From: a virus
Taxonomy: Duplodnaviria > Heunggongvirae > Uroviricota > Caudoviricetes
DNA length: 8,580 bases
IMG/VR virus record: IMGVR_UViG_2547132270_000009
Direction: 5' to 3' (one strand)
Part shown: positions 440-7,165 of the stretch, one piece after another
Position numbering within the stretch: the first letter of the stretch is position 1
Layout of the letters: each line of letters begins with the position of its first letter
Program-made: the position numbers and the translations under genes
Notes under the pieces: model-generated
Databases searched by the model: none
What the model saw: only the letters and a program-made list of their open reading frames with translations
What the model was told of the DNA's origin: nothing

Positions 440-2245
440 TTAATTTTTTCCATCGTCATTTGTGACCGATGCACATGATGGCATCCAGTCTTCTGAATCC
501 TCTGTAAGGGTCACATTTGAACGCAAACCGTGCTTCGTTTTCCGTTTCATATACTCCCTGCCATATTCCGCCATTGCCCCCGGCATATCTTTACCGAAGC
601 GCGTCAGTGTTACAGGTTTACCGAATCCGTGTGCCCTCATATATGCCAGATAGGCGTGATAAAGATACCTGCGCGGACTGAACGGAATAATTTCGGCATT
701 ACCCACTAACAGACCATCACACATTACCGACGACATGAGATAGCCGCAGAAGTCCACCAGCGAATCGCCCTCGCGTTTTATCACCAGTGCTTCTTCTGAT
801 TTCTGCTGCTCATACAGCAGGCGTTTAGCTTCGTCCTGGTCAGAAAAACGAGTAAGCAGGTGGCGAATCACAACCGCCAGCTCTCCTTCTATTTTTTCTG
901 CCAGCATGGGGTCGCGTTCGTTTTCCGGTACAACCTCCGAAAAATTGAATATCACCCGACGACGTGAGATCCCCCCGCTGCGGTCACTGAATGACATGGC
1001 GTTATTGTTCACCGCCAGCACGACCGCCTGAATGCGTGTTGAGTAGGGGGCTTTATGCTTCGGGTCGATTGCCACCTTGTCACCGCCTGTAATGGCCTTA
1101 ATTCCTGCGCCATCACCAGCGTAGCGGGTCATATCCGGCATGATAATCAGCGAAAATCCAACCACTAACGCGCGTTCCCTGGCATCTTCCAGCGCCTTCA
1201 TGCTTGCCGATACCGTGTTGGCCTTACCCGCCAGCATGGTGCAAATCTCCGCCATTACGCTTTTACCGCTTCCACCCGGCCCCGTTACCTCAAGAAATAA
1301 CTGCCAGTCGTATCGGTTCGCCAGCACCATGAATAACGCCGCCAGTACGCGATCCGCTTTACGGTCATTCTCAGCCACCGAACGGCGCAACCATTTCCAG
1401 AAATTCGGCGCATGCGTTGCCAGCGTTTCCCCCTCTGCTGGCGGGCTGAACGGTAATTCACTGGCAATTAACAGCCAGTCGTTTTTGTCATGCTCCCGAA
1501 AATCGCCTGTCCGGGTATCAAAAACACCGTTACTGAATCCAATCAGGTTACGGGCGGTATTCCCCATTACGGGCAAACTTAACTTCATTGTATCGACCGC
1601 CGATTTGATGGCGTTCTGCGAATAACTGATCTCCGCATCAATAAAAATCTGCGCCATAGCCCGCTGTAACTCTTTATCCTGTACCGGCTCCCATACAACG
1701 CCGTTGTAGTGGTGAACGGTGTCAGAGTCCGCATTGATTGCCAGTTCACCGCCATAACGTGCCAGGAGAACTTCGCCGCGCTGGCTTGCTCCCATCTGGT
1801 TAAGCGCCAGTGGTGCGGCGCTGTCTTCTGTTTTTTTCTTAACAGGAAGCTGAATAACCAGACCATCAGAAAGATTCTGGCGCTCACGCTCCAGATATTC
1901 GTGCCAGTTCTCCCGCTTCTGGCTGTGCATTCCCTCAGGGTAATAATTCGCATCCCGTACACCTGCCACCGCCAGCTTTTGCCCGATGGCATTAATATTT
2001 GACGGCTTGATGTGGCCTGCCTTGTACAGCCGGACACAATAGCGACCATCGTCGATAATTTTCAGGCCTGCCAGTTCGTCAAGCTGGCTGTCTCCCAGCC
2101 ATACAGGCGGAACATTGTCGCCAGCAAGTCGCCCGTCCTGCTCCTGCCATTGTTTCGCGTGCGCCCAGGCATCACTACCCGCAAAAATAATGACTTCGGT
2201 CATTTTGTCGTGCGGCTGTTTTTTCAGATTCGGTGCCAGTTTCAT
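440..2245 (-). CDS. replication protein, SF3-family helicase / primase-like (P4 alpha-like or PICI Pri-Rep-like), 601 aa
   Basis: 601-aa ORF with AGGGG Shine-Dalgarno 6 nt before the ATG at 2245. Walker A VTGPGGSGKS, Walker B-like SLIIMPDM, SF3 motif C VVLAVNNN and an arginine finger region SRRRVIFNF are all visible in the translation. Adjacent iteron array fits an initiator and its origin. Confidence 0.85.
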   Translation of the reverse strand: MKLAPNLKKQPHDKMTEVIIFAGSDAWAHAKQWQEQDGRLAGDNVPPVWLGDSQLDELAGLKIIDDGRYCVRLYKAGHIKPSNINAIGQKLAVAGVRDANYYPEGMHSQKRENWHEYLERERQNLSDGLVIQLPVKKKTEDSAAPLALNQMGASQRGEVLLARYGGELAINADSDTVHHYNGVVWEPVQDKELQRAMAQIFIDAEISYSQNAIKSAVDTMKLSLPVMGNTARNLIGFSNGVFDTRTGDFREHDKNDWLLIASELPFSPPAEGETLATHAPNFWKWLRRSVAENDRKADRVLAALFMVLANRYDWQLFLEVTGPGGSGKSVMAEICTMLAGKANTVSASMKALEDARERALVVGFSLIIMPDMTRYAGDGAGIKAITGGDKVAIDPKHKAPYSTRIQAVVLAVNNNAMSFSDRSGGISRRRVIFNFSEVVPENERDPMLAEKIEGELAVVIRHLLTRFSDQDEAKRLLYEQQKSEEALVIKREGDSLVDFCGYLMSSVMCDGLLVGNAEIIPFSPRRYLYHAYLAYMRAHGFGKPVTLTRFGKDMPGAMAEYGREYMKRKTKHGLRSNVTLTEDSEDWMPSCASVTNDDGKN

Positions 2246-2541
2246 TTTTTGCCCCTGAATGCGTTAATCATGCTTTTCATTTTCTGAATATTTGCCCGTG
2301 CCTTTGCGTTGCTGGTGGGCTGTTTGCGTGGTGTGGCCTGTATCAGTGAAAAATCACGCCGGAACTGATAAACAGGCATCACGCAGTCGTAGCCGTACCC
2401 ATCACGGCGGTAAGTAACGCACCGTCCGGCAATACTTTTAATCGTTACCGTGCCACCGTAGTTATCCCGGAAAATATCGCCGGGGCGGATTTCAGGCCGA
2501 GCGGGGCCGCTGGCAGTAAAGCCAGAATTTTTCTTTTTCAT
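2242..2541 (-). CDS. hypothetical small protein (99 aa), translationally coupled to the helicase gene
   Basis: ATG at 2541; its stop overlaps the helicase start as ATGA (2242-2245). Basic C-terminus. Fourth of five small genes in the operon. No family recognised. Confidence 0.55.
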   Translation of the reverse strand: MKKKNSGFTASGPARPEIRPGDIFRDNYGGTVTIKSIAGRCVTYRRDGYGYDCVMPVYQFRRDFSLIQATPRKQPTSNAKARANIQKMKSMINAFRGKK

Positions 2542-2545
2542 GGTT

Positions 2546-2746
2546 TTATTTTCCTGTCAGTGATTCCGGTTTTATTCCGGCGCGAATACAGGCTTCAGAA
2601 AAAAAAGCCAGAGAACCAACAACCTCATCATTTCTCAGTCGGCATTGTGATTTCACTTTCCCTTTATCCAGGTAAACCAGTACGCGTCCGGTGAAATCAT
2701 CTGGCACATTAAGCACTACGGGTACATGCGCTTCATGATTATGCAT
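2546..2746 (-). CDS. hypothetical small protein (66 aa)
   Basis: ATG at 2746 preceded by a GGAGGA Shine-Dalgarno; the start overlaps the upstream gene's stop by 8 nt (ATGCATAA). Ends 4 nt before the next start. Confidence 0.5.
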   Translation of the reverse strand: MHNHEAHVPVVLNVPDDFTGRVLVYLDKGKVKSQCRLRNDEVVGSLAFFSEACIRAGIKPESLTGK

Positions 2747-2972
2747 GGCTTACATCCTCCGTGAATTTTCTTCTGTAACGCGTCTCTGCCACATATTCCG
2801 CATAGTCCGACGCAATACTAAGAATCATTTCACCCTCTGACTTGTAGCCACTGGTATTGATAAGAAAATATGCAGCTTTCATCATGTCAGCAACGCTCAA
2901 CAATGCGCCCGCTGCATCTTCCGGTGCGCCATCAAATTCCCGTTTCAGGGAATTAAAACGATCATCACGCAT
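2739..2972 (-). CDS. hypothetical small protein (77 aa); may be the downstream half of a frameshifted larger gene
   Basis: ATG at 2972 lies 2 nt downstream of a G9 run (coding-strand G, plus-strand C at 2975-2983) that could serve as a Shine-Dalgarno. Acidic, helical-looking protein. Confidence 0.5.
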   Translation of the reverse strand: MRDDRFNSLKREFDGAPEDAAGALLSVADMMKAAYFLINTSGYKSEGEMILSIASDYAEYVAETRYRRKFTEDVSHA

Positions 2973-3205
2973 AACCCCCCCCCATTTTCACAATCAGCAA
3001 TCAGGATAGCCCTGGCCTCATTCAGTGCCATATCAGCGGTAAGCTGTGCGTAAGCCAGCGAATGCGGGATTATCGCCCCTGTATATTCCGTCTCTCTGGT
3101 AATGTGTTTTTCTGCGGTTGCTGCCGTGCATGAAATATCAATCAGCGCGTGCATCAGCGTTTTGATGGCTTCGGCGGCTGCGCCCGGACGGGTGTTATTG
3201 CACAT
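2945..3205 (-). CDS. hypothetical small protein (86 aa as read); reads through the G9 tract and stops shortly after
   Basis: ATG at 3205 with AGGGGGTG Shine-Dalgarno; overlaps the Icd-like stop by 8 nt (ATGTGCAATAA). Ends CENGGGLCVMIVLIP. The first ATG of the raw ORF (3247) is rejected because it overlaps the Icd-like gene. Confidence 0.45.
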   Translation of the reverse strand: MCNNTRPGAAAEAIKTLMHALIDISCTAATAEKHITRETEYTGAIIPHSLAYAQLTADMALNEARAILIADCENGGGLCVMIVLIP

Positions 3206-3395
3206 GATGCACCCCCTGACGAATACGGGCGGCGAATACAGCGACACAACCGGACGGGCAACGGTTACGCGCTTCGCGTTCTGTCCAGGCGGTCACGTGG
3301 ATAATTTGAGAATCTCCGGCACTCAGTGCCAGAAAACGCCACACAAAGGCGGTTTGTGTGTGCGCTAGTCGTGGGGTATGCTGTCTTACAGCCAT
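3195..3395 (-). CDS. Icd-like small protein (P4 kil/icd-type host cell division inhibitor family), 66 aa
   Basis: ATG at 3395 with GAGGTAA Shine-Dalgarno 5 nt upstream. Translation MAVRQHTPRLAHTQTAFVWRFLALSAGDSQIIHVTAWTEREARNRCPSGCVAVFAARIRQGVHHVQ fits the F-W-R-F ... EREAR ... AARI pattern I recall for Icd-like proteins of P4-like elements. First gene of the minus-strand operon. Confidence 0.6.
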   Translation of the reverse strand: MAVRQHTPRLAHTQTAFVWRFLALSAGDSQIIHVTAWTEREARNRCPSGCVAVFAARIRQGVHHVQ

Positions 3396-3496
3396 AATCG
3401 TTACCTCATTTAACGGTTTGGTTAGAAGCCCCGTTACTGCTCCAACAGTGCGGGGCTTCGTCGTTTCAATTGCTGAATTGCATGTATCAGCCCTTG

Positions 3497-3550
3497 TGGT
3501 ATTCAGATTACATTTTGGTGAATACCAGTTCAAGTCTTTTTTGGTATTCA
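3497..3550. promoter_or_regulatory. divergent promoter/operator region: three TGGTATTCA sites and a candidate sigma70 promoter for the minus-strand operon
   Basis: TGGTATTCA at 3497-3505 (direct), 3519-3527 (inverted) and 3542-3550 (direct); the first two form an inverted repeat with a 13-bp spacer. On the minus strand, -35 TTGAAC (plus 3528-3533), 17-bp spacer, -10 TAATCT (plus 3505-3510) overlap these sites. Confidence 0.4.
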
Positions 3551-3594
3551 CTTTTGTATTACACTGCATCCCGTTATTAATCGGAGGTGCAAAC

Positions 3595-3900
3595 ATGTCC
3601 ACGAGTTCTGTTAACAATAAGTCACAGCAACTGAATGCCAGATTTCCACATGAAGTAGTGAGTGGCATTGAGGCATCCCTACAGCCTGGGGAAACTAAAG
3701 CGAATTTTATAGTTACGGCTGTACGCGGTGAAATCGCCCGCCGCCAAGCAGAAGGAAGAGGAGAAAATCCCCTGGTTTCTTCGCTCGATGCACTGGCGCA
3801 GGTGGAAAAAATCGGTGTCAAAGCAGCCGAGGAGATCGGGCAACTCGTCACCGTCGCGCGTGAAGAACTCCAGCGCCGCAAGGCCAAAGAACAGGAGTAG
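3595..3900 (+). CDS. ribbon-helix-helix DNA-binding protein, YlcI/YnfO (DUF3950)-like; candidate regulator of the element
   Basis: ATG at 3595 with GGAGGTG Shine-Dalgarno; 101 aa. N-terminal LNARFPHEVVSGIEASL...KANFIVTAVRGEIARR fits the RFP...NF...RR pattern of YlcI/YnfO-type proteins; charged helical C-terminus. It is the only + strand gene inside the element, divergent from the operon. Confidence 0.7.
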   Translation: MSTSSVNNKSQQLNARFPHEVVSGIEASLQPGETKANFIVTAVRGEIARRQAEGRGENPLVSSLDALAQVEKIGVKAAEEIGQLVTVAREELQRRKAKEQE

Positions 3901-4394
3901 TTGATCAGCACCGGGCGCCCAGAAAAAATCGTATCAGTCGCGCCACCAGCAAAATTTTTTGCTTTCCGGACAGCGTGGCCAACGACATTTTGCAGCAAAA
4001 TATTCTGCATTTCTGGCGTGCTGTAGTAACGGTGATCAGCGCCTTCACATTGAACGAACTTGTCGCTAAAATTCACCCATATAGCAAACATCGCGGTGCT
4101 GTAGGTAATTCGTTCACAAAGGCGCTCCGGCAACGGGGCGCTTTTTGTTTTTATTAGTTTGTAGAAACCTGACTCAGAGATAATGCTCATATTCTGATTG
4201 CCGTCAGGGGTGTAAGTTAAATTTACTCCCTTTTTATCATCAAACATCTGCAACGCTCTGGCGTTAACAATATTGGTTTCACTCCCGCCAGTAAGGCCGG
4301 AAATAACCGGAATAATTTCGGCAAAATTTTGCAGATTCTGTTTTTCAGGACGAACGAAGCCCCGCCCTTGTTCGGGAGAATATCCAGTATTCAT
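3900..4394 (-). CDS. Bro-N-like (antirepressor-type) protein; 3' end unresolved, possibly a pseudogene
   Basis: ATG at 4394. The first 120 or so residues contain Bro-N-like blocks (FDDKKGV...NMSIISESGFYKLIKTKSAPLPERL). The frame has no stop until 3195, running antisense through the RHH gene and into the Icd-like gene, so the real C-terminus cannot be set from sequence; 3900 is an approximate boundary. Both other minus frames hit stops near 3903-3930. Confidence 0.35.
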
Positions 4395-5002: not shown

Positions 5003-6250
5003 TTATATTTCTCTGGCTATTGGCAGTGTGGTTACGTTTTTGTGAGTACCCGCCAGTATCTCTAACCGCTCTGTCCACATGTCCAGCGCATTACGTTTCG
5101 CATCGAGATAACGGGAGTGGTTATAGACTCGCTGCATCCCTGGCATCTGGTGAGCGGTGAGTTGTTCGACAATATGCGGATCCACGCCTAAATCGTTCAG
5201 CATCGTGGTAAACGTGCGCCGTATATCGTGTAGTGACCAGTGCGGATGGTTTAATTTTTTGTGCATGAATCTGCCGTATTGCGACACACTGGCTTCCTGT
5301 TTCAGTTCCCCGAGTAATAGCCCTGTGTGTCTGTTCTGCTCCACCAGCTGCGTGACGAACGGTAAAATGCTTTCCGGTATTGGCCTGAATATGGCGACCT
5401 TCGTTTTGCTGTGCTCTTTCGGTACTGTCCAGAGCATTTCCTTAAAATCCCACTCCCTGATCTCCGATAATCTCAGTTCTCCGGTTCGGCAGCCGAACAC
5501 AATCAGGAGGCGGATTAGTGCGCTGTAGTAGGGCGGGAATATTTTTTTATCCAGCGCCTGTAATAATTCGCCAAGTTCTTTGTTGCTCAGCACGCGTTCG
5601 CTTATGCCTGGTTTTTTGCCAACGTCCACCACGTTAAGATCATCCAGAACGTTACTGACTGCGTAGCGACGTTTACGGCAGAACTTAAGCGCCTGTTTAC
5701 ACGCCTGCATCATGTGACCAGACGTTACAGGGGATTTTTTGCGTATCCGGTCAAAACAGGCCAGCCAGTGACGTAACTCGCATTTATCCAGTGGCATATT
5801 GCCAATATGCTGTATGACGTGATTATTCAGGCGGCTTTTCAGGCATACGTAATCGACACGGTTTTCCTTTACGTGCATTTCCAGCCAGTAGCTGATCGCA
5901 TCACCCACCGTTACCGGCTTTAGTGCTTCCTGTATGGAGTAATTAAGCTCATGGCGTGGATTTTTTCCTTCTGCCAGCCATGCGCGACACTGTGCCGCTT
6001 TTTCCCTGGCTGCTTTCAGGCTCAGATCAGGATAATTTCCCAGCTTCAGGCGTTCCGGTGATACCTGGCGTCCAGCTCCTGCCCTGTAGGTGAAATACCA
6101 GGTTAACAAGCCGCTGGTGGAATGCCTGACGCTCAGGTTTCCACCGTCATTAAGAAATGTGGTTTTTGGGGCTGGTGTGCCGTTGATTTTTCTTAGCTGT
6201 GTATCGCTCAGTTTGTTAAGTGCTCTGCTCATAATTTTGAATCCGGTCAT
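5003..6250 (-). CDS. int: tyrosine-type site-specific integrase, P4-like family
   Basis: About 415 aa. N-terminal arm-binding domain (DGGNLSVRHSTSGLLTWYFTYRAG...LGNYPDLSLKAAREKA) resembles P4-type integrases; C-terminal catalytic motifs HDIRRTF and YNHSRYLDAKR (tyrosine nucleophile). Start is ATG at 6250 or GTG at 6253; no strong Shine-Dalgarno for either. Confidence 0.93.
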   Translation of the reverse strand: MTGFKIMSRALNKLSDTQLRKINGTPAPKTTFLNDGGNLSVRHSTSGLLTWYFTYRAGAGRQVSPERLKLGNYPDLSLKAAREKAAQCRAWLAEGKNPRHELNYSIQEALKPVTVGDAISYWLEMHVKENRVDYVCLKSRLNNHVIQHIGNMPLDKCELRHWLACFDRIRKKSPVTSGHMMQACKQALKFCRKRRYAVSNVLDDLNVVDVGKKPGISERVLSNKELGELLQALDKKIFPPYYSALIRLLIVFGCRTGELRLSEIREWDFKEMLWTVPKEHSKTKVAIFRPIPESILPFVTQLVEQNRHTGLLLGELKQEASVSQYGRFMHKKLNHPHWSLHDIRRTFTTMLNDLGVDPHIVEQLTAHQMPGMQRVYNHSRYLDAKRNALDMWTERLEILAGTHKNVTTLPIAREI

Positions 6251-6397: not shown

Positions 6398-6577
6398 TTA
6401 TAAAAATCCGCTATTGATAATGGCGCTGCGTACGCGATCACGCGCTTCCTTTACTGTCGTTTCTGGTAAGCCCACCATTGTTAATCCGGGTAGACCTTTG
6501 CTGATATGTACCTCAACAGTGATCGGCGGAGCATTTACTCCCAGAGCTGCGCGAGTATGAACAATTGATAGTGACAT
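6398..6577 (-). pseudogene. yifB: yifB/comM (Mg-chelatase-like AAA+ ATPase) 5' fragment, truncated after about 59 codons by the inserted element
   Basis: ATG at 6577 with GGAGGA Shine-Dalgarno. Translation MSLSIVHTRAALGVNAPPITVEVHISKGLPGLTMVGLPETTVKEARDRVRSAIINSG matches the YifB/ComM N-terminus from memory, then ends FL-stop at 6398-6400 where the full-length protein (about 500 aa) should continue. The junction is estimated at about 6400-6412. Confidence 0.8.
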
Positions 6578-6849
6578 AAGTCCTCCTTGAGTCACCATTA
6601 TGAACACAATCATTCGCTGCTGTAGCCAGCAAAATTACGACTTTTAGCGGCTGATTCCTGTTTATTTTTGCAATCGATATTGAGTTGTATTGGTGATGGA
6701 ATGATGCTCGCAAAAATGTTGCGGACAAATATTGAGCTGTTTTGTGGAGAACAAGAAACATACGGAAATTGAATTTTTTTCACTCTTCTTTTTTTATATA
6801 AAAAACAATGATCTCTATCGAAATTATTATGTGCATCATAAAAATCGGC

Positions 6850-6895
6850 CAAAAAATATCTTGTGTTATTCGCAAAATCTATGGTACCTCTTTAG
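6850..6895 (+). promoter_or_regulatory. ilvL-ilvG operon promoter region
   Basis: Candidate -35 TTGTGT (6861-6866) and -10-like TATGGT (6880-6885) 40-70 bp upstream of ilvL, but the spacing between them is only about 13 bp, so exact element assignment is uncertain. AT-rich upstream sequence (6760-6850) fits UP/IHF-type elements. Confidence 0.4.
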
Positions 6896-6929
6896 ACATT
6901 CCTTCGAACAAGATGCAAGAAAAGACAAA

Positions 6930-7028
6930 ATGACAGCCCTTCTACGAGTGATTAGCCTGGTCGTGATTAGCGTGGTGGTGATTATTATCCCACCGTGCGG
7001 GGCTGCACTTGGACGAGGAAAGGCTTAG
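6930..7028 (+). CDS. ilvL: ilvGMEDA operon leader peptide (32 aa)
   Basis: Translation MTALLRVISLVVISVVVIIIPPCGAALGRGKA, rich in Ile/Val/Leu control codons, recognised as the ilvL leader peptide; TAG stop at 7026-7028. Confidence 0.95.
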   Translation: MTALLRVISLVVISVVVIIIPPCGAALGRGKA

Positions 7029-7050
7029 AGATCAAGCCTTAACGAACTAA

Positions 7051-7085
7051 GACCCCCGCACCGAAAGGTCCGGGGGTTTTTTTTG
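7051..7085 (+). terminator. ilv attenuator, rho-independent terminator
   Basis: GC-rich stem ACCCCCG (7052-7058) pairing with CGGGGGT (7071-7077) around a GAAA loop, followed by a T-run (7077-7084), between ilvL and ilvX/ilvG. Confidence 0.9.
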
Positions 7086-7114
7086 ACCTTAAAAACATAA
7101 CCGAGGAGCAGGCA

Positions 7115-7165
7115 ATGAATAACAGCACAAAATTCTGTTTCTCAAGATTCAGGACGGGGAACTAA
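7115..7165 (+). CDS. ilvX: small protein IlvX (16 aa)
   Basis: ATG at 7115 after GAGGAGCAGG; translation [16 protein letters not shown] then TAA, matching the 16-aa IlvX small protein as I recall it; ends 2 nt before ilvG. Confidence 0.8.

Follow-up and report, generated by a model that had tools for sequence, protein, structure and literature searches.

The window analysed here is the whole of an 8,580-nucleotide (nt) stretch, IMG/VR virus record IMGVR_UViG_2547132270_000009, and carries what by its gene content is a P4-like integrative element of the CP-933C/O-island 51 (OI-51) type. In the minus-strand operon of this element two short open reading frames (ORFs), here called A and B, overlap at a run of nine guanines (G9), the sole G/C run of seven or more in the window (Table 1). 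We consider it probable that G9 is a natural length variant of a poly-G tract prone to slippage, that all lengths of the tract yield both A and B, and that the junction is a tolerated hot spot of gene fusion and fission.

The run appears as C9 on the plus strand and as G9 on the coding strand, in the context GAAAAT-GGGGGGGGG-TTATGCG with the nine G's at 2983-2975. A is read across it as AAT GGG GGG GGG TTA TGC GTG ATG ATC GTT TTA ATT CCC TGA, the stop (2945-2947) falling 10 codons past the GGG. B opens with an ATG (2972-2970) after the dinucleotide TT, is read in the -1 frame with respect to A, and closes at 2739. By frame arithmetic G10 would fuse A and B into 155 amino acids (aa) and G7 into 154. 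Re-reading the sequence upheld all of the coordinates, the GGG reading, the stop, the start of B and the frame arithmetic given in a preliminary description of this DNA. The start of A is placed at the ATG at 3205, and not at the GTG at 3247 where the mechanical ORF list begins (100 aa), because all homologues begin MCNN. Dinucleotide-shuffled windows are expected to hold 0.07 G9/C9 runs each, and 11 of 200 shuffles held at least one, so the run on its own is only marginally unusual against chance; it is not a chance run, because the position of the tract is fixed in hundreds of genomes. A matches phrog_5146 (2.4e-26) and the N-terminal half of phrog_2512, and B matches phrog_24341 (2.7e-49) and the C-terminal half of phrog_2512. 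The exact A protein is WP_000336176.1 of Escherichia albertii, recorded from one contig only; the exact B protein is present on at least 1000 contigs.

Table 1 Features at the A/B junction and in the surrounding element (positions in the window)
Feature	Position	Strand	Remark
G9 homopolymer	2975..2983	-	GGG codons closing the conserved core of A; 2 nt 5' of the ATG of B; Shine-Dalgarno-like element for B
ORF A, 86 aa (G9 allele)	2945..3205	-	core residues 1-74 (MCNN...ADCEN), GGG, out-of-frame 9-aa tail LCVMIVLIP
ORF B, 77 aa	2739..2972	-	own ATG 2 nt 3' of the tract; stop overlapping the following gene's ATG (ATGCATAA)
A/B overlap, 28 nt	2945..2972	-	A tail (G9 frame) read across the first codons of B
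Near-invariant block	2934..3025	-	core 2934-2997, weaker out to 3025
Local hairpin AATTCCC-TGAAAC-GGGAATT	2935-2954	-	TGA stop of A (2945-2947) in the loop
Icd-like gene	3195..3395	-	NF033153 (2.1e-18); directly upstream of A, stop overlaps the start of A
66-aa ORF	2546-2746	-	phrog_340; downstream of B
DUF4222/RgdR-family ORF, 99 aa, basic	2242-2541	-	two genes downstream of B
Primase-helicase	440-2245	-	D5_N/DUF5906/Pox_D5
AlpA-like gene	4803-4447	-	upstream of the operon
Tyrosine integrase	6253-5003	-	upstream of the operon

The junction is present in 737 of 5,426 complete E. coli genomes (about 14%), where exact-match counts give G7 in 378, G8 in 182, G9 in 174 and G10 in 26. Among 74 IMG/VR and metagenome loci with A upstream the lengths are G4 (5), G7 (22), G8 (28), G8TGG (2), G9 (10) and G10 (6 plus 1), and the full range at the homologous site is G4 to G13. 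The Prokaryotic Genome Annotation Pipeline (PGAP) calls one hypothetical protein at G7 and G10 and two genes at G8 and G9. When the window sequence with one added G was used as the query, 461 proteins matched; the best 120 of these are nearly all 154-156 aa long, with the junction CEN-GG-V-M in 50, CEN-GGG-V-M in 50 and GGGG in a few, corresponding to G7, G10 and G13. The preliminary description had supposed that G10 or G7 would produce a fusion of about 160 aa, and such single fused ORFs, of 154-155 aa, are indeed plentiful; a consistent two-gene arrangement is clearly not what the homologues show. Fused alleles occur in O157:H7 (G7) and in enteroaggregative E. coli (EAEC) 042 (G10).

A query with A only recovered the split forms, whose tails are GGGYA (G8), GGGLCVMIVLIP/LMP (G9), GGGGYA (G11) and GGGGLCV... 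(G12), some split-A clusters having 200-300 members; it also matched many 78-aa stand-alone A proteins without the tract. PHROGs holds A, B and the fusion as three separate families. G9-type A proteins of 86 aa recur on 42, 27 and 24 independent contigs: G9 is a common natural allele, not peculiar to the contig of the window. The closest A-B relative found (L091, ~94% DNA identity) carries G8. A scan of genome contigs gave one locus only, from E. ruysiae, and hence no cross-genus picture.

Tract length turns over between elements that are otherwise the same. Identical 456-nt A+B flanks surround G7 (O157:H7 and four IMG/VR loci), G9 (L143) and G10 (EAEC 042), and another pair with identical flanks differs as G7 and G8. 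Apart from the 3-nt difference in the tract, the operon segments of O157:H7 and 042 show 3 substitutions over 1,388 nt. Length variation of the slipped-strand type, which had been raised as one possibility, is therefore seen between near-identical elements. On a neighbour-joining tree of 62 unique elements with a total length of 2.5 substitutions per site, Fitch parsimony requires at least 28 changes of tract state; this is near the mean of 33 obtained with shuffled states, and tract state thus has almost no phylogenetic signal. Lengths in the unique elements are unimodal (G7 in 16, G8 in 24, G9 in 11, G10 in 7) with no period of three, and neither the fused nor the split frame appears visibly favoured. 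All sampled O157:H7 genomes carry G7, and this uniformity together with the G9-type A protein found on 42 contigs suggests stability at the level of the clone. The tract appears to be a hot spot on an evolutionary scale, slow rather than switching on the scale of a culture. The two assemblies named E. coli 042 represent different strains and so provide no within-strain comparison. A phase-variable switch, also suggested in the preliminary description, does not in the classical on/off sense appear to describe the locus, as no tract length removes either ORF.

Both ORFs are well preserved. B keeps its 77 aa at every one of the 10 G9 loci and at 26 of the 30 G8 loci; the remaining G8 loci comprise three with 73- or 79-aa variants of B and one 16-aa case at a contig end. 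The ratio of non-synonymous to synonymous substitution rates (dN/dS) is 0.30 for B in split alleles and 0.27 in fused alleles, and 0.35 and 0.44 respectively for A, which places both ORFs under purifying selection, although ratios sorted by tract state cannot tell apart functions tied to one state, since the tract changes state more quickly than substitutions build up. For a fused homologue, the AlphaFold model has two helical hairpins, with predicted local distance difference test (pLDDT) scores of about 75-84 and 62-72, and a linker of low confidence between them (residues 74-102; overall pLDDT 62). A Foldseek search with this model returned generic four-helix bundles only (E > 0.4), and neither A nor B had a match in Pfam, NCBIfam, PADLOC, PDB sequences or a phage collection that included P4.

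B very probably has the G-run as its ribosome-binding site, one of the possibilities entertained in the preliminary description. Its predicted duplex with the anti-Shine-Dalgarno sequence has an energy of -11.1 kcal/mol, equal for G7 to G13, and is the strongest of eight starts tested; the start of A itself, where a G5 run (3212-3216) precedes the ATG, gives -10.7 kcal/mol. No variation is seen in the ATG of B, either at 75 loci or among the 120 fused proteins inspected (the best 120 of 461). The same start of B (ATGCGTGATGATCG...) is found in a second context at 66 other loci, where it follows G4-G10 plus TAAAC and an unrelated gene, X (118 aa). There B is a stand-alone gene, and A lies further upstream as a stand-alone gene of 74 aa. 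At the commonest length in this context (G6, 42 loci) X ends at the TGA of ATGCGTGA, and rarer lengths give X-B fusions of 196-197 aa, including in E. albertii. Since the same G-run and start of B stand behind the unrelated X, the G-run travels with B and not with A. For the question of its Shine-Dalgarno (SD) role, GGTGGCGGA is a candidate substitute sequence for the G-run.

Some further observations concern this second arrangement, A' (74 aa)-X (118 aa)-G-run-B, which is found in L002 (E. coli ABU 83972, 2425-3234) and in many IMG/VR loci (L028-L069). X and the 66-aa ORF of the window share an MHN start, each preceded by a ...V(S/H)HA stop/start overlap, and they look like paralogous modules. 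In L030 and L031 a G8 run at position 5840 stands directly before an ATG (AAAGGGGGGGGTATG). Together with the G5 run of A, this suggests that SD sequences made of G-runs may be a habit of these elements.

The sequence around the tract is far better conserved than the rest of A and B. The core of the near-invariant block reads CTGATTGTGAAAAT-Gn-TTATGCGTGATGATCGTTTTAAT.CCCTGAAAC.GGAATTTGATGGCGC, and in 55 unique flank pairs the block is 97-100% invariant, synonymous sites included, as against 72-80% majority conservation in the rest of A and B. Invariance extends from ~14 nt upstream of the tract (more weakly to 42 nt) to 41 nt downstream. The proportion of synonymous differences (pS) is 0.19 in B codons 1-20 and 0.43 in codons 21-77, and ~0.4 elsewhere in A and B. 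Megablast matches in otherwise diverged elements are limited to query 301-367, that is, to the block. The local hairpin within it is without covariation support, as the majority variant AATGCCC...AGGAATT breaks two pairs, and the RNA fold of the junction is not significant (z-score -1.46). For the block, searches gave neither an Rfam family nor a promoter-like site, and neither a complementary partner nor a significant fold. A spacer-length promoter switch was rejected, since no sigma-70-like site in a promoter/terminator scan spans the tract. An antisense target of the P4 CI/P1 c4 type found no support, since a repeat search gave no C-rich or other convincing complementary partner in the leader for the tract or the block. 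Candidate causes of the invariance are multi-frame constraint (the block contains the TGA codons at which A terminates in the G8 and G9 alleles), recombination homogenising a module boundary (the megablast breakpoints fall at the tract) and a cis element.

We propose that replication slippage changes the length of the tract, for which G4 to G13 are observed, with a different consequence in each frame. At G7, G10 and G13 a Gly2-4-Val linker joins A and B into 154-156 aa. At G8 and G11, A ends ...GGGYA at a TGA overlapping the start of B (ATGCGTGA). At G9 and G12, the class of the window, A gains nine out-of-frame codons into B before its stop (2945 in the window). In every allele the conserved core of A ends just before the tract and B keeps its own ATG behind the G-run, which would be its SD sequence, the tract thus doubling as glycine linker codons and as the ribosome-binding site of B. 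If all three frames deliver A and B in this way, it follows that all lengths can be common and that both ORFs can be under purifying selection. The tract is polymorphic and homoplasious, the ORFs are intact, and complementarity of the SD type is present in two upstream contexts. In split alleles B would be translated from its own ATG, and the fused and split forms would be functionally near-equivalent.

Several points weigh against this proposal. Initiation at the ATG of B in split alleles is predicted from sequence and from the context-X elements. In draft or long-read assemblies, part of the variation in length could come from homopolymer error. The hydrophobic G9 tail, LCVMIVLIP, could alter the behaviour of A, and the alleles may differ. 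The dN/dS values sorted by present-day tract state are weak evidence. Finally, a plain SD sequence with a glycine linker needs neither a pure G-run nor 60-90 nt of invariant flanks, GGAGG being the better SD, and further constraint or selection for mutability may be involved. The pure run and the invariant block go beyond the needs of an SD and linker and so weaken a passive reading somewhat.

Selection for mutability would make the junction an adaptive contingency locus, in which the fused, separate and tailed forms change the behaviour of the element, for example its interaction with a helper phage or the expression of the downstream RgdR-like and primase genes. This would explain why the tract has stayed uninterrupted over a tree of 2.5 substitutions per site while showing extreme homoplasy, and why even the synonymous sites of the flanking block do not vary. 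Related elements have another poly-G tract of variable length (G7-G10), independent of this one and ~100 nt into an alternative downstream gene, which points the same way, and G/C runs of nine or more are unusual in E. coli. Set against this are the failure of any tract length to remove A or B, the absence of a frame preference in the length distribution, the clone-level stability indicated by the sampled O157:H7 genomes (all G7) and by one G9-type A on 42 contigs, and the proficiency of E. coli in mismatch repair. We regard a contingency locus as unlikely, though it is the most interesting of the alternatives. A bolder version would have the tract and its 60-90-nt block act as a selected switch that toggles fused, separate and tailed forms in mismatch-repair-proficient Escherichia, with the second tract a true on/off device, the pair diversifying interaction with helper phage or, given that RgdR shares the operon, with host regulation, and the block a cis element that sets slippage, recoding or translation of B; this is speculative and decidedly unlikely.

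The G9 of the window could be a homopolymer sequencing or assembly error, the true length being G8 (two genes) or G10 (fusion): the window is the whole of a single draft contig, its exact 86-aa A protein comes from one contig only, and its closest A-B relative, L091, has G8. Yet G9 is frequent (174 complete E. coli genomes, 10 of the 74 IMG/VR and metagenome loci, A proteins on 42, 27 and 24 contigs) and there is no sign of error within the sequence, so we hold an error in this contig to be very unlikely; an error of plus or minus one there would leave the overall picture unchanged. The same counts speak against sequencing error, raised in the preliminary description, as a one-off event that would explain the tract in general. 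Recoding would instead yield a set share of A-B fusion, by a -1 ribosomal frameshift on G GGG GGG or by slippage of RNA polymerase. The heptamer formally fits X XXY YYZ in the frame of A, a -1 shift would give the G10-type fusion, and the invariant 41 nt downstream could in principle act as a stimulator. In these respects, a slippery homopolymeric heptamer at a two-frame junction and a trans-frame product equal to the fused protein, the site resembles programmed -1 sites (dnaX A AAA AAG, the IS3 family, lambda G/GT) and the 'savior indel' G-run of herpes simplex virus (HSV) thymidine kinase, where low-level compensatory frameshifting on a G-run is documented (PMC5009743). It departs from them in that the frame relation is not conserved, G8 needing +1, G9 -1 and G7/G10 none; in that the only local hairpin starts 20 nt past the run, where a stimulator would stand at 5-9 nt, and is broken in the majority variant, the fold of the junction having a z-score of -1.46 and no Rfam match; and in that G-runs are poor -1 shifters in E. 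coli, GGN A-site codons being on average less frameshift-prone than AAN/UUN (PMC4066793). Programmed frameshifting, another of the earlier suggestions, is thus highly improbable, while adventitious slippage at a low level on the G-run is plausible. The run does not fit a transcriptional slippage site either (Thermus dnaX A9, Shigella mxiE/spa, IS elements), usually a fixed-length homopolymer of A or T of at least nine, being made of G and varying in length. Lastly, the 155-aa fusion might be the functional protein and the G8/G9 alleles decaying pseudogenes, a notion that draws on the wide occurrence of fused forms, including those of the well-studied O157:H7 and EAEC 042. About half of the elements have A and B out of frame, but in essentially all of these B has stayed intact (10 of 10 G9 and 26 of 30 G8 loci) and under purifying selection (dN/dS about 0.3), and stand-alone A of 74-78 aa without the tract and stand-alone B behind gene X both exist. 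A frameshift-inactivated gene, as the preliminary description had allowed, is scarcely credible on these data.

Intragenic poly-G/C tracts whose length splits or joins neighbouring ORF calls by slipped-strand mispairing are known in Campylobacter jejuni, Helicobacter pylori and Neisseria, the last being the subject of a survey (PMC5084427). The tract described here resembles them as an uninterrupted run of at least seven in coding sequence, differing in length between near-identical strains, that gives one long ORF at some lengths and two ORF calls at others. It differs in that B has its own start and the tract would be its SD, so that there is no obvious OFF state, and in its host, mismatch-repair-proficient Escherichia, where such loci are rare. 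Like gene fusion/fission ('Rosetta stone') pairs, A and B are found fused, separate and each alone in different elements, and their two helical hairpins may pack together (a low-confidence feature of the model); unlike such pairs, the events here are reversible single-nucleotide changes at one hot spot, with at least 28 recurrences among 62 elements. Operons of bacteria and phages in general may carry the SD of a distal gene within the end of the gene before it. As in translationally coupled overlapping pairs of this kind, the SD of B would lie within the last codons of the proximal gene (A, or X), and the classic overlap of start and stop, ATGCGTGA, is seen in the G8 alleles as well as in the common G6 alleles of context X. 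The SD here is a long pure homopolymer instead of GGAGG, and would therefore be mutationally unstable, repeatedly turning the A/B pair into a fusion.

Full-text literature searches found the tract described nowhere. The mechanism, slipped-strand change of a homopolymer, and the outcome, ORFs split or joined, are already well known. What is particular here is the setting, a mismatch-repair-proficient Escherichia host and the early operon of P4-like elements, and the apparent lack of an OFF state where the tract doubles as the distal SD. Carriers of the junction include O157:H7, EAEC 042 and ATCC 25922-type strains as well as E. albertii. A single nucleotide decides between one-gene and two-gene annotation, with the result that one entity is spread over PHROG 2512, 5146 and 24341, and recognition of the fusion/fission hot spot avoids misreading such calls as pseudogenes or assembly errors. 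Tract length can serve as a natural marker for elements that are identical otherwise and have diverged very recently, and the tract offers a clean system in which to measure G-run slippage and SD function in mismatch-repair-proficient enterobacteria. Were the tract selected, it would be a rare simple-sequence-repeat contingency device in Escherichia, in an operon that also encodes the virulence regulator RgdR.

The assignment of the element to the CP-933C/OI-51 type follows from its gene content: tyrosine integrase, AlpA, Icd-like leader gene, alpha-type primase-helicase and iterons are all present (Pfam, NCBIfam, PHROG). Any genes for capsid size and hijacking (sid, delta, psu) would fall outside the 8.6-kb contig. 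The minus-strand operon genes downstream of B (440..2746) are packed tightly or overlap, and the gene order of the window is also annotated in many E. coli chromosomes. CP-933C (O-island 51/Sp7) of O157:H7 has the same series of integrase, AlpA-like gene, Icd-like gene, A-B, small ORF, DUF4222/RgdR and replication protein (PMC3378721). The two differ in that the O157:H7 element (L162) carries the fused G7 allele and the window the split G9, in that CP-933C has a RepA-type helicase where the window has a D5-type primase-helicase, and in that the element of the window resides in E. albertii, adjoining a comM remnant and ilvL. The 99-aa DUF4222-type protein of CP-933C is the regulator RgdR (ECs1581), an activator of LEE1 and of type III secretion that also influences motility (PMC3378721). 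A text search of that paper showed no discussion of the tract. The RgdR-family protein of the window has RPGD where the O157 version has RGD.

The island lies between a truncated comM/yifB (6398-6613, minus strand) and the ilvL leader (6732-7028, plus strand; Rfam RF02744 at 6858-7148), and the host genes beside it (ilvG, ilvL and the comM remnant) are 90-95% identical to those of E. coli. A search with the whole window did not find a near-identical island in E. coli; the element is mosaic, and a same-lineage replicate of its G9 was accordingly not found. Several octamers of the forms TGTTCACC and GGTGAACA are present at 220-399, directly downstream of the primase-helicase gene. They resemble the ori/crr iterons bound by the P4 alpha protein, and the region is probably the replication origin of the element. 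The Rfam scan of the whole window returned nothing at the tract, did not match C4/CI RNA and had the ilv leader as its only real match, those to miRNA at 220-399 being artefacts of the iterons.

The second variable tract is absent from the window. Where B is followed by a gene of another family (69 aa, MDKIPFDVLIHSENAL...), it is found in that gene about 100 nt past the stop of B (e.g. L056:3566), as GCCGAACA-G7/8/9/10-ATTTATTTTC, at 13 loci (L003, L010, L056, L068, L077-L079, L125, L126, L130, L138, L139 and L148). The full protein comes from one frame only, and 7 of the 13 loci are cut to 47-52 aa.

Upstream of A, a 399-aa minus-strand ORF (3195-4394) is an artefact of a long open frame, of which the last 66 codons alone are the Icd-like gene. 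Inside the Icd-like ORF a terminator-like hairpin (3340-3360, minus strand) consists of CACACAAACCGCCTTTGTGTG followed by a T-rich tail, and a promoter-like site, TTCACC-17-TAAAAT (3704-3732, minus strand), lies ~310 nt upstream of the Icd-like start; the two are possibly counterparts of the P4/P1 immunity leader. The plus strand at 3597-3900 encodes a YlcI/YnfO-like protein of ~101 aa (phrog_6522), whose E. coli homologues are annotated likewise.

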